64,000 nucleotides of DNA from Polyangia bacterium (GCA_030430565.1 JAUIKS010000008.1:47225-111224); one strand, 5' to 3'. Positions 17,388 through 19,621 are shown, counted from the stretch's first letter. The notes: generated by a model from the letters alone, not told the origin. Program-made: numbers and translations.

Positions 17388-18572
17388 ATGGACTTCTCGC
17401 TCTCCCCCGAGCTCCAGGCGCTGCAGGAGAAGACGCGGCGCTTCATCGCCGAGGTCGTCATCCCCTACGAGGATGACCCTCGACAGACGCCGCACGGGCC
17501 CGCCGAGGCGCTGCGCGACGAGCTGGTCGCCCACGCGCGCGCGGCCGGCCTGCTCACCCCGCACGGGCCGCGGGAGCTCGGCGGGCTCGGGCTCTCGCAC
17601 CGGGCCAAGGCCGTCGTGTTCGAAGAGGCAGGCTACTCGCCGCTCGGGCCGGTGGCGATGAACATCCACGCCCCGGACGAGGGCAACATCCACCTGCTCG
17701 ACGCGATCGCCACGCCGGCGCAGCGCGAGCGCTGGCTGCGTCCGCTCGTCGAGGGGCACGCGCGCTCGTGCTTCGCCATGACCGAGCCGGCCCCCGGGGC
17801 GGGCTCGGACCCGACGATGCTGACCACGACCGCGACCCGCGACGGCGACGACTACGTCATCCACGGGACCAAGTGGTTCATCACCGGCGCCGTCGGGGCG
17901 CGCGTCGCGATCATCATGGCGAAGCTCGAAGATGGCGCGGCGACCATGTTCCTCAGCGACATGGACGCGCCCGGGATCCGCGTTGAGCGGACCATGGACG
18001 CGCTCGACGCCTGCTTCACGGGCGGGCACTCGGTGCTGCGCCTCGAGGGCCTGCGCGTGCCCGCCGAGAACGTGCTGGGGGCGCTCGGCGAGGGCTTTCG
18101 CTACGCCCAGGTGCGCCTGGCGCCCGCGCGCCTGACCCACTGCATGCGCTGGCTCGGGGCCGCGCGCCGGGCCCACGACACAGCGCTCGCCTACGCGGCC
18201 CGGCGCCGCGCCTTCGGCAAGCGCCTCGGCGAGCACGAGGGCGTGGGCTTCATGCTCGCCGACAACGCCATGGACCTGCACGCCGCGCGGCTCTCGACCT
18301 GGCACACCGCGTGGGTCCTCGACCAGGGCCAGCGCGGCAAGCACGAGTCGAGCATGAGCAAGGTCGCGGTCAGCGAGGCGGTCTGGCGCGTGGTCGATCG
18401 CAGCGTGCAGATCCTCGGCGGCCAGGGCGTCACCGGCGAGACGATCGTGATGCGGATCTTCAAGGACATCCGCGCGTTCCGCATCTACGACGGCCCCAGC
18501 GAGGTGCACCGCTGGAGCGTCGCCCGCCGGCTCCTGCGGCGCGCGGCGCCGCCGGAGGAGGGCGCCTCGTGA
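17388..18572 (+). CDS. Acyl-CoA dehydrogenase (fourth), translationally coupled to the downstream kinase
   Basis: Start MDFSLSPELQALQEKTRRF. ACAD motifs (CFAMTEPAPGAGSDPT; QILGGQGVTGETIVMRIFKDIRAFRIYDGPSEV). The ORF-track 5' extension from 17280 was rejected. Confidence 0.85.
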   Translation: MDFSLSPELQALQEKTRRFIAEVVIPYEDDPRQTPHGPAEALRDELVAHARAAGLLTPHGPRELGGLGLSHRAKAVVFEEAGYSPLGPVAMNIHAPDEGNIHLLDAIATPAQRERWLRPLVEGHARSCFAMTEPAPGAGSDPTMLTTTATRDGDDYVIHGTKWFITGAVGARVAIIMAKLEDGAATMFLSDMDAPGIRVERTMDALDACFTGGHSVLRLEGLRVPAENVLGALGEGFRYAQVRLAPARLTHCMRWLGAARRAHDTALAYAARRRAFGKRLGEHEGVGFMLADNAMDLHAARLSTWHTAWVLDQGQRGKHESSMSKVAVSEAVWRVVDRSVQILGGQGVTGETIVMRIFKDIRAFRIYDGPSEVHRWSVARRLLRRAAPPEEGAS

Positions 18573-19621
18573 GCTCGAGCGGCGGCGACACCCAGGACTG
18601 GGCGCGCGCGCGCGCGTACCTGGCGGGGCGCGGGCTCGAGCTCGAGCTCGAGCCCGCGCCCCGGCGACTCTCGGGCGGCTTCGCCAACCTCAACTTCCTC
18701 GTCCGCGTGAACGGGGCGCCCATGGTCCTGCGGCGCCCGCCGCCCGGGGAGCTGCCGCCGGGCGCCTACGACATGGGCCGCGAGCACCGGATCCTCTCGC
18801 GCCTGTGGACCGCGTTCCCGCTCGCGCCGCGCGGGCTGCTGCTGTGCGACGACCCCTCGGTCCTCGGCGCGCCCTTTCAGCTGCTCGAGTACCGCGAGGG
18901 CGTCACGATCCGCGACGAGCTCCCCGCCGCGCGCGCCGATGACGAGGCCCTCGCCGCGCGGCTCGGGGCGATGATGATCGAGCGCCTCGCCGAGCTGCAC
19001 CGCGTGGACCCGGACGCGGTCGGCCTCGACACGCTGGGCCGCCCCGCCGGCTTCCTCGCGCGCGCGGTCCGGGGCTGGACCAAGCGCGCGCGGCTCTGCT
19101 TCGCGACCTTCGCGCGCGGGCTGCCGCCCCTGGCGAACGAGCTCGCTACCTGGCTCGACGAGCACCTCGTGCCCGACGCCGCGGTCAACCTGCTGCACAA
19201 CGACTTCAAGCTCGACAACATCGTGCTCGACCCCGCCAGCTTCGAGCCGGTCGCGCTGCTCGACTGGGACCAGGGGACGCGCGGCGACGGCCTGTTCGAC
19301 CTGGCGACGCTGCTCTCGTACTGGACCGAGGCGGGCGACCCGGCGCCGATGCACGACATGCGGCAGATGCCGACCGCGCGCGCCGGCTTCCCCACGCGCG
19401 AGCGCGCCGCCGCTCACTACGCGTCGATCACGGGCCGCGACCTCTCGGGCTTCCGCTTCCACCGCGTGCTCGGGCAGTTCAAGACCGCGGTGATCTTCGC
19501 GCAGCTGCACGCGCGCTGGCGGGCGGGCGACACCGACGACCCGCGCTACGCGGAGTTCGGCCCGCTCGCGCTCGGCCTGCTCGAGGTCGCGCACGAGATC
19601 GCGCGCGGCCGGCAATTCTGA
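18569..19621 (+). CDS. Aminoglycoside-phosphotransferase/choline-kinase-family (APH-like) kinase
   Basis: GTG start overlaps the ACAD stop (GTGA). Brenner motif HNDFKLDNIVL and LLDWDQGTRGD. N-terminal nucleotide-binding lobe FLVRVNGAPMVLRRPP. Confidence 0.8.
   Translation: MSSSGGDTQDWARARAYLAGRGLELELEPAPRRLSGGFANLNFLVRVNGAPMVLRRPPPGELPPGAYDMGREHRILSRLWTAFPLAPRGLLLCDDPSVLGAPFQLLEYREGVTIRDELPAARADDEALAARLGAMMIERLAELHRVDPDAVGLDTLGRPAGFLARAVRGWTKRARLCFATFARGLPPLANELATWLDEHLVPDAAVNLLHNDFKLDNIVLDPASFEPVALLDWDQGTRGDGLFDLATLLSYWTEAGDPAPMHDMRQMPTARAGFPTRERAAAHYASITGRDLSGFRFHRVLGQFKTAVIFAQLHARWRAGDTDDPRYAEFGPLALGLLEVAHEIARGRQF

Follow-up and report, generated by a model that had tools for sequence, protein, structure and literature searches.

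Does a pair of overlapping genes in the β-oxidation array of a Polyangia bacterium form a divided counterpart of the mammalian enzymes ACAD10 and ACAD11 and, if so, on which acyl chains would it act? The pair comprises an acyl-CoA dehydrogenase (ACAD)-family gene and, directly after it, a gene for a kinase of the aminoglycoside phosphotransferase (APH) fold. Both lie in a 64,000-nucleotide stretch of assembly GCA_030430565.1 (JAUIKS010000008.1:47225-111224), hereafter the window, which has a GC content of 69.8% and whose proteins have their nearest relatives in metagenome-assembled genomes (MAGs) labelled Nannocystaceae or Myxococcales. An earlier sequence-only reading proposed that the two genes are coupled in translation and that, together with a following short-chain dehydrogenase/reductase (SDR), they represent a split ACAD10/11-type module feeding 4-hydroxyacyl-CoAs into the neighbouring β-oxidation genes. 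The analysis described here favours this view: with a probability of roughly 70%, the overlapping pair would be a two-step module that readies γ-hydroxylated acyl-CoAs for β-oxidation.

Gene structure and signature residues of the pair

The ACAD-family gene runs from an ATG at 17388 to a TGA at 18570-18572, this start being favoured over the first ATG of the open reading frame (ORF), at 17280, because homologues are 384-399 residues long and align from residue 1. The kinase gene opens with a GTG at 18569, closes with a TGA at 19619-19621, and encodes the HNDFKLDNIVL stretch expected from the earlier reading. The tetranucleotide GTGA is shared by the stop codon of the first gene and the start codon of the second, again as had been claimed; this overlap is required in the window, since the stretch from the ACAD stop to the invariant Trp11 of the kinase offers no other ATG, GTG, or TTG. 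A Shine-Dalgarno-like GGAGGAGGG ends 6 nt 5′ of the GTG. The nearest relatives that share this gene order also have an overlap at the junction (GTGA in locus L006 and TTGA in L008), and these offer an alternative ATG 9 and 33 nt downstream, respectively. The two genes are probably translationally coupled through the stop/start overlap. A promoter and terminator scan of positions 7700-24600 returned nothing above the shuffled background, such a scan being uninformative in DNA of 70% GC.

All three Pfam ACAD domains score above cutoff in the first product (N-terminal, 1.9e-15; middle, 1.1e-18; C-terminal, 1.5e-42), and the APH domain PF01636 matches the second at 4.3e-37. ACAD10, ACAD11, and the Pseudomonas putida protein LvaC are distinguished from conventional ACADs by a catalytic Asp (D753) that replaces Glu (PMC12440821). 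In ACAD11, an HCMR motif (H634...R637) and an upstream Arg, R626, hold the 4-phosphate, and cryo-electron microscopy combined with mutagenesis has demonstrated that these residues, which are absent from conventional ACADs, are needed for phosphate elimination (PMC12440821). A helix-breaking Pro near the substrate cavity, Pro463 in human ACAD11, is a further marker (PMC11342911).

The key residues of the window ACAD are R243, R248, H251-C-M-R254, and D368. In a HMMER alignment to mouse and human ACAD11, R243, H251, R254, and D368 fall on R626, H634, R637, and D753. The stretch that carries the upstream Arg and the HCMR motif, RLAPARLTHCMR (R243-LAPA-R248-LT-H251-C-M-R254), matches ACAD11 residue for residue, and the segment IYD368GPSEVH aligns with LAD753GPDEVH of ACAD11, where the Thermus medium-chain acyl-CoA dehydrogenase (MCAD) 1ukw has YEGT. 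By alignment, the HCMR/Asp signature is absent both from 1ukw and from the three other ACADs in the window. With regard to the Pro marker, the window protein reads NIHAPDEGN, compared with NCQAPDTGN in ACAD11 and MASDLG in MCAD; the numbering of the 2wbi construct differs from that of Pro463.

The window ACAD shares 36% identity with human ACAD11, 41% with the Mycobacterium abscessus structure 4hr3, and 34% with Thermus MCAD. Given this modest identity to ACAD11, membership of the family rests on signature, tree, and linkage rather than on raw similarity. At E<1e-10, 86 PDB ACAD sequences match the protein. The top of a search among 1.84 billion cluster representatives consists mostly of signature-bearing sequences, with ordinary ACADs that read E-G-T ranking lower. 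A neighbour-joining (NJ) tree was built from 78 sequences with 100 bootstraps, LvaC and ACAD10 not being among them. Nearly all signature-bearing sequences form one clade with ACAD11, 4hr3, and the window ACAD, and in 84 of the 100 bootstraps the smallest group that unites the window ACAD with ACAD11 contains no typical ACADs. The expectation that the protein would keep apart from ordinary short-, medium-, and long-chain ACADs is borne out by this result. The expected grouping with ACAD11 holds at the level of the clade, but not below it: the window ACAD belongs to a sister sub-clade, separated from that of ACAD11 in 100 of 100 bootstraps, which also holds a single-chain ACAD-APH fusion (P0126). 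From its residues and position, the protein is predicted to be a flavin adenine dinucleotide (FAD)-dependent enzyme of the ACAD10/11/LvaC type that eliminates phosphate from 4-phosphoacyl-CoA.

The kinase presents a comparable picture. Only six PDB sequences match it at E<1e-3, led by 9o56 (2.3e-74), mouse ACAD11 (1.7e-34), and 3dxp (8e-30); no aminoglycoside, homoserine, or choline kinase structure matches at that threshold. Among NCBIfam kinase models, none reaches its cutoff, the sole match being a thiamine kinase model at 27 bits against a cutoff of 299. An identity as an aminoglycoside, homoserine, or thiamine kinase is ruled out by these cutoffs and PDB matches, and the earlier view that the protein is no aminoglycoside or homoserine kinase orthologue stands.

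The key residues of the kinase are R55, R71-E72, R165, H210-N-D212-F-K214, N217, and D232-W-D234. Structure 9o56 is the 'ACAD10 kinase domain' from Caldalkalibacillus thermarum described in a preprint (PMC13596139), as identified by a match of residue numbers (D214, K216, N219, D234, E236, R61, and E78). The window kinase is 39% identical to it (254 bits) and 33% identical to ACAD11. R55, E72, D212, K214, N217, D232, and D234 correspond to R61, E78, D214, K216, N219, D234, and E236 of 9o56, and the catalytic loop also aligns with D220 and N225 of ACAD11. R55 is the Arg of β3, E72 the Glu of αC, and D232-W-D234 the metal-binding motif. The catalytic residues are invariant in a 20-sequence alignment, and the third residue of the DW[E/D] motif is Asp in the window (DWD) compared with Glu in both 9o56 and ACAD11 (DWE).

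Two Arg residues bear on the substrate pocket. In ACAD11, R86 and R176 are CoA contacts in molecular dynamics models, as distinct from a bound structure (PMC12440821). R165 of the window kinase aligns with R176 and is invariant in the same 20 sequences. R71 adjoins the αC Glu, as described for R86, but counting residues in ACAD11 did not yield 86. The kinase groups with 9o56 and with the fusion P0174 (39-44% identity) and not with ACAD11-type kinases (29-33%), a division that, judged by sequence identity, parallels the ACAD sub-clades. It is predicted to be a 4-hydroxyacyl-CoA kinase of the ACAD10/11-kinase/LvaA family.

Conserved linkage, proposed chemistry, and known counterparts

Linkage was assessed in 80 genome loci that carry relatives of the kinase at 54-77% identity, with every protein of the window used as a query. 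An ACAD orthologue (64-88% identity) adjoins the kinase orthologue in 66 of the 80; among these 66, RLAPARLTHCMR is identical in 65 and YDGPSEVH in 64. Conservation across Myxococcota and Proteobacteria is much stronger for the ACAD (75-88% identity) than for the partner kinase (55-77%). In Proteobacteria, the kinase gene precedes the ACAD gene; the two overlap by 1 nt in 18 loci, and in many more the gap between them does not exceed 16 nt. ACAD followed by kinase is the order of the window and of the Nannocystaceae/Myxococcales loci L006 and L008.

In 44 of the kinase loci, an SDR gene occurs on the same strand at a distance of at most 1.5 kb, usually directly after the ACAD gene, which is the lvaA-C-D order. 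The SDR subfamily varies by lineage, being HSDL2-like in the window and HSD10-like in Haliangium ochraceum. Such variation argues for selection for the step and not for one particular gene, and repeated recruitment of SDRs from different subfamilies fits a required 4-oxo/4-hydroxy redox step. At the H. ochraceum locus (L085, 780-4040), the order is SDR (HSD10-like)-kinase-ACAD and the ACAD is 78% identical to that of the window; the short contig hides any other neighbours.

The two domains are also found on single chains, in both orders, among the nearest relatives of the window ACAD. P0126 (752 aa) and P0174 (759 aa) are ACAD-APH fusions, the reverse of ACAD10/11 and the same order as the window genes, and P0194, P0229, P0261, and P0208 are APH-ACAD fusions with the domain order of ACAD10/11. 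Gene structure, domains, signature residues, tree position, conserved linkage, and fusions are thus established here.

The chemistry, the role of the SDR, and the substrate are inferred by homology to assayed enzymes, namely ACAD10/11, LvaAC, and their Burkholderia counterparts. By this analogy, the kinase would transfer phosphate from ATP to the 4-OH group of a 4-hydroxyacyl-CoA. Within the ACAD, R243, H251, and R254 would then bind the 4-phosphate and D368 would take the α-proton. Elimination of the phosphate would yield a 2-enoyl-CoA, with FAD used transiently and without net oxidation; ACAD10 and ACAD11 work without an added electron acceptor (PMC12440821, PMC11342911). The 2-enoyl-CoA would pass to the products of the adjacent fadB-type and thiolase genes. 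Upstream of these reactions, the HSDL2-like SDR most likely makes the substrate by reducing 4-oxoacyl-CoA to 4-hydroxyacyl-CoA, which is LvaD's role in P. putida, and the convergent acyl-CoA synthetase would supply the CoA thioester. The idea of a split ACAD10/11-type module accordingly draws support from signature residues, tree, kinase relatives, and linkage, and activity on 4-hydroxyacyl-CoA is its predicted part.

The closest functional model is the lva operon of the P. putida levulinate pathway, which encodes the kinase LvaA, LvaB, the ACAD-like LvaC, the SDR LvaD, and the CoA ligase LvaE (PMC6692424, PMC12440821, PMC11342911). As in lva, the kinase and the ACAD-family protein of the window have a gene each within one operon, accompanied by an SDR and an acyl-CoA synthetase. 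The proposed route is likewise that from 4-oxoacyl-CoA through 4-hydroxyacyl-CoA and 4-phosphoacyl-CoA to enoyl-CoA or 3-hydroxyacyl-CoA. The window ACAD has the catalytic Asp and the HCMR-type pocket common to LvaC and ACAD10/11 (PMC12440821), and most proteobacterial relatives of the pair are ordered kinase-ACAD-SDR, as in lva.

In several respects, however, the window departs from that model. The order is inverted, with the ACAD before the kinase and a 4-nt overlap between them, and LvaB is missing. The regulator is of the TetR type, whereas LvaR is of the σ54 type, and domain scans of the cluster found no transporter (LvaF/G). The HSDL2-like SDR and the synthetase are likened to LvaD and LvaE by gene content and not by sequence, and the module sits within a long β-oxidation operon beside Rox-type oxygenases. 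LvaC is reportedly 56-62% identical to the ACAD domains of ACAD10/11 (PMC11342911), compared with 36% between the window ACAD and human ACAD11, which places the window ACAD in a different sub-clade, as a more distant cousin of LvaC.

Mammalian ACAD10 and ACAD11 (8v3u, 8v3v, 2wbi) possess the same two domains and the same catalytic and phosphate-binding residues. The HxDxK..N and DW[E/D] motifs are retained in the window kinase, as is an Arg that corresponds to R176 of ACAD11. Differences from the mammalian enzymes lie in the division into two polypeptides, in an order opposite to the kinase-N-terminal/ACAD-C-terminal arrangement, in the lack of a HAD domain, and in DWD for DWE. The window proteins are 33-36% identical to the mammalian domains, and the window ACAD lacks three short insertions found in ACAD11 and in 4hr3.

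Stand-alone orthologues of LvaA and LvaC from Burkholderia pseudomallei (kinase Q63VL0) can replace the corresponding parts of ACAD10 in vitro, and they are described as resembling ACAD10 more than the P. putida proteins do (PMC11342911). This pair is a direct precedent for split bacterial pairs that carry out ACAD10 reactions; it is likened to the window pair by its published description and not by sequence. All catalytic residues of the C. thermarum enzyme (9o56) are conserved in the window kinase, but that enzyme, in contrast to the predicted substrate of the window kinase, acts in vitro on 1-O-alkylglycerol and is stimulated by acetyl-CoA (PMC13596139). The split bacterial version is already characterised in P. 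putida LvaA/LvaC and in the assayed B. pseudomallei orthologues, and the window pair adds an example. It is marked by membership of a distinct and very conserved sub-family, the inverted order, an HSDL2-type SDR, the lack of LvaB, and linkage to a Rox-type oxygenase.

Operon neighbourhood and the Rox-type oxygenases

The pair stands near the end of an array of 11 co-directional genes, which encode the TetR-family regulator, three ACADs, a zinc-dependent alcohol dehydrogenase, a DUF4334 protein, a thiolase, FadB, the ACAD, the kinase, and the SDR (Table 1). Flanking this array are the aldehyde dehydrogenase gene, genes for three proteins with RoxA-like cytochrome c domains, and a gene for an MpaB/Lcp-family oxygenase.

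Table 1. Features of the module and its surroundings, in window coordinates.
Feature	Position	Strand	Size, basis, and remarks
Aldehyde dehydrogenase	6368..7798	+	PF00171, 1.3e-152
TetR-family regulator	7859..8527	+	Head of the co-directional array; family assigned by domain scan
Three ordinary ACADs	8616-9782, 9757-11010, 11033-12217	+	Without the HCMR/Asp signature
Thiolase	13935..15146	+	NF006090, 678 bits
FadB/FadJ-type enoyl-CoA hydratase/3-hydroxyacyl-CoA dehydrogenase	15173..17344	+	43 nt 5′ of the ACAD gene
ACAD-family gene, ACAD10/11/LvaC type (predicted)	17388..18572	+	394 aa; Pfam ACAD domains, signature residues, tree
Shine-Dalgarno-like GGAGGAGGG	18554..18562	+	Within the 3′ end of the ACAD gene; read from the sequence
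GTGA stop/start overlap of ACAD and kinase genes	18569..18572	+	Read from the sequence
APH-fold kinase, ACAD10/11-kinase/LvaA family (predicted)	18569..19621	+	350 aa; PF01636, PDB matches
HSDL2-like classical SDR	19674..20510	+	278 aa; alternative ATG at 19680; about 52 nt after the kinase gene
Acyl-CoA synthetase (AMP-binding)	20518..22086	-	522 aa; PF00501, 2.9e-90; convergent with the SDR gene
Rox-family dihaem oxygenase, predicted lipoprotein, RoxB-like residues	22123..24372	-	Match to RoxA structure 4b2n

The SDR that had been noted after the pair is real: the protein scores 450 bits with NF006133 (cutoff 250), its PDB matches are 3e03 (362 bits) and human HSDL2 (3kvo; 343 bits), and the TGxxxGxG and YxxxK motifs are present. 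The acyl-CoA synthetase, which could fill the role of LvaE, is kept beside the module at 85-86% identity in the Nannocystaceae loci L001/L005 and in L006. The fadB-type gene starts with the ATG at 15173, with GAGGAGGA upstream. The TetR gene is kept in L008 and lies beside the pair in several proteobacterial loci.

Two of the ordinary ACADs (9757-11010 and 11033-12217) resemble PimC large/PimD small and IpdE2-type heteromeric ACADs; as such enzymes are typical of the breakdown of branched, cyclic, and dicarboxylic acyl-CoAs, the resemblance fits an unusual lipid substrate for the operon. A GXWXG/DUF4334 protein (13371-13841, + strand) is conserved in the operon, with a counterpart in L006 at 4775-5215, and a DUF4334 gene also lies beside Rox-like genes on the metagenome contig L122 (14664-15044).

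Most of the Rox-family protein aligns with the RoxA structure 4b2n (361 bits, 1e-106). It has a signal peptide with an LGPVAC lipobox, an acidic low-complexity linker, CHGCH and CASCH haem sites, and the MauG motif PYFHNGSVP. Val occupies the position equivalent to W302 and Phe that equivalent to F317, which is the RoxB pattern (Table 1 of PMC10837239). As read from these motifs, the protein joins RoxB-like catalytic residues with a RoxC-like lipoprotein anchor.

Three further proteins were considered as rubber-cleaving oxygenases and set aside. The product of 24477-25577 (+ strand) matches the Pfam MPAB_Lcp_cat domain (PF09995) but has no PDB match at E<1e-3; with no solved relative at that threshold, this MpaB/Lcp-family protein is not a close Lcp homologue, and it was rejected as a latex-clearing protein. 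Its gene adjoins the rox gene, an adjacency kept in L008 (15051-15785, 72% identity), and an MpaB/Lcp-family gene also occurs in L116 at 6005-6820. The RoxA-like_Cyt-c proteins encoded at 4742-6349 (+ strand, 535 aa) and 28017-30299 (+ strand, 760 aa) were rejected as rubber oxygenases, only their C-terminal ~170 residues being RoxA-like.

This neighbourhood bears on the substrate. Cleavage by Rox and Lcp enzymes leaves an aldehyde end and a methyl-ketone end (PMC6311187). Both the structure of the product 12-oxo-4,8-dimethyltrideca-4,8-diene-1-al (ODTD) and its aldehyde and keto ends are established (PMC6311187, PMC6797691), and models of the rubber pathway name no enzyme for the keto end (PMC6460296). 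It is conceivable, with the odds against it, that the physiological substrate of the module is specifically the keto end of the fragments that cleavage of isoprenoids or rubber leaves. Such a proposal keeps the same chemistry and refines the two-step reading; it does not compete with it. Rox-type oxygenases would cut trisubstituted C=C bonds to give aldehyde and methyl-ketone ends, after which the aldehyde—possibly through the aldehyde dehydrogenase of the window, which could act on the aldehyde end of oxygenase cleavage products—would be oxidised and the resulting acid activated to a CoA ester. For ODTD, four rounds of β-oxidation would release acetyl-, propionyl-, acetyl-, and propionyl-CoA. 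As derived from the rules of β-oxidation, the last five carbons would then be 4-oxopentanoyl-CoA (levulinyl-CoA), which is the lva substrate. Reduction by the SDR, phosphorylation by the kinase, and elimination of the phosphate by the ACAD would follow, and it would be only through reduction, 4-O-phosphorylation, and phosphate elimination that levulinyl-CoA reaches central metabolism.

Several co-locations agree with this proposal. In the window, the RoxB-like dihaem oxygenase gene lies 1.6 kb from the SDR gene, and two RoxA-like cytochrome c proteins, the MpaB/Lcp-family oxygenase, and the aldehyde dehydrogenase are encoded as well. The Rox linkage recurs in the Nannocystaceae loci L001/L005 and L008. 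In six Steroidobacter, Peristeroidobacter, and Povalibacter genomes (L010, L011, L013, L015, L016, and L023), a kinase orthologue (61-63% identity) lies directly beside a true roxA gene—in L013, for example, the kinase gene at 9935-11032 and roxA at 11099-13135—and these Steroidobacterales RoxA proteins share 81-95% identity with RoxA of strain 35Y, which has been characterised. The kinase gene there follows a thiolase-like gene, with an enoyl-CoA hydratase gene between them in Povalibacter. H. ochraceum, whose SDR-kinase-ACAD locus is described above, has an experimentally verified RoxA.

L122, a 1.8-Mb metagenome contig, carries an ACAD11-type ACAD gene followed by the kinase gene (5488-7724, - strand), next to two Rox-like genes (10001-14535), the DUF4334 gene, and ordinary ACAD genes. 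Its ACAD is 49% identical to human ACAD11 and carries RLAPGRMHHCMR; the locus is an independent case of co-location, with a pair of the other sub-clade. No mention of the Steroidobacterales kinase-RoxA adjacency was found in the searchable literature, and the searchable corpus held no paper combining a rubber oxygenase with levulinate.

Other observations speak against a keto-end substrate. Only one of 79 metagenomic Rox-like loci, many of them on short contigs, has the kinase-ACAD pair within 10 kb, and for this reason no general Rox-kinase association is claimed. A rox gene is lacking from the surroundings of most kinase-ACAD-SDR loci (Acetobacteraceae, Burkholderiales), and the genomes with a Rox-kinase link represent only about three independent lineages. 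The window Rox protein, a predicted lipoprotein, shares only 34% identity with RoxA, and the lipoprotein-type RoxC proteins assayed so far show no rubber cleavage (PMC10837239). The proposed link between Rox cleavage and the kinase/ACAD module is suggestive. That the kinase/ACAD/SDR module supplies the keto-end step still lacking in the bacterial catabolism of rubber and oligo-isoprenoids is offered as a tentative suggestion, the less probable side of the question.

Other readings and what the module may mean

A number of points weigh against the two-step reading itself. Overall identity to ACAD11 is low for the ACAD and the kinase alike (36% and 33%), the bit scores of the ACAD are nearly equal for 1ukw MCAD and ACAD11 (198 and 199), and the separation of its sub-clade from that of ACAD11 is complete. 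From this sub-clade, no assayed ACAD was found, and the placement of LvaC and ACAD10 relative to the window ACAD rests on identities published in papers. The window SDR is likened to LvaD by role and not by sequence. No LvaB-like small protein is encoded at the module, since the kinase gene overlaps the ACAD gene and the ~52-nt gap between kinase and SDR genes holds no small ORF; P. putida needs LvaB, and P. citronellolis is likewise without it (PMC6692424). A kinase orthologue occurs without an LvaC-type ACAD within 10 kb in Steroidobacterales and in one Nannocystaceae MAG.

The 9o56 enzyme, the solved structure nearest to the kinase, phosphorylates 1-O-alkylglycerols in vitro (preprint PMC13596139), and an alkylglycerol role has been proposed for the ACAD10 kinase and prokaryotic homologues. 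This raises the alternative that the main task of the window kinase is to phosphorylate 1-O-alkylglycerols in ether-lipid salvage, and that it is coupled to the ACAD for the sake of some other lipid function. The numbering of 9o56, to which the window kinase is more similar than to any other structure, matches that of the C. thermarum enzyme that phosphorylates chimyl alcohol with stimulation by acetyl-CoA (PMC13596139). The window kinase also sides with 9o56 in preference to ACAD11-type kinases. Myxobacteria make ether lipids, a further point for the alternative. Against it stands the tight and widespread coupling of the kinase to an ACAD with a phosphate pocket and a base for CoA thioesters, which argues that an acyl-CoA substrate is passed from kinase to ACAD. 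The neighbours of the kinase are β-oxidation genes, Pfam scans of the larger ORFs of the window revealed no ether-lipid gene such as AGPS, and the preprint itself calls the relation between the two activities unclear (PMC13596139). An alkylglycerol kinase is on balance improbable. Hardly credible, and largely refuted, is a chance overlap of an ordinary ACAD linked to electron transfer flavoprotein with an unrelated antibiotic, homoserine, or choline kinase, for which generic Pfam ACAD/APH matches and bit scores for MCAD and short-chain ACAD structures near those for ACAD11 can be cited, but which is contradicted by the signature residues, the tree, pairing in 66 of 80 loci, fusions in both orders, and the absence of any NCBIfam kinase family at cutoff or any such kinase structure at E<1e-3.

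Taken alone, the two-step pair is unsurprising, as the system has already been worked out in P. putida, Burkholderia, and mammals. What the window documents is a large and highly conserved bacterial sub-family that is distinct from the ACAD11/LvaC branch and is found in both gene and fusion orders. Its HSDL2-like SDR adjoins the ACAD10/11-like pair, and HSDL2-type enzymes may thus act on 4-oxo- or 4-hydroxyacyl-CoAs. A literature search found no paper tying HSDL2 to ACAD10/11 function. If the module is indeed the keto-end step of rubber catabolism, the HSDL2-type SDR would serve as a 4-oxoacyl-CoA reductase. That would give a hint as to the substrate of human HSDL2, a candidate partner of ACAD10/11. 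The genomic context, in turn, provides a testable idea about the fate of the methyl-ketone end in the biodegradation of rubber and isoprenoids. If that idea is correct, many lva-like operons would by nature serve to break down isoprenoids and not to use free levulinate.

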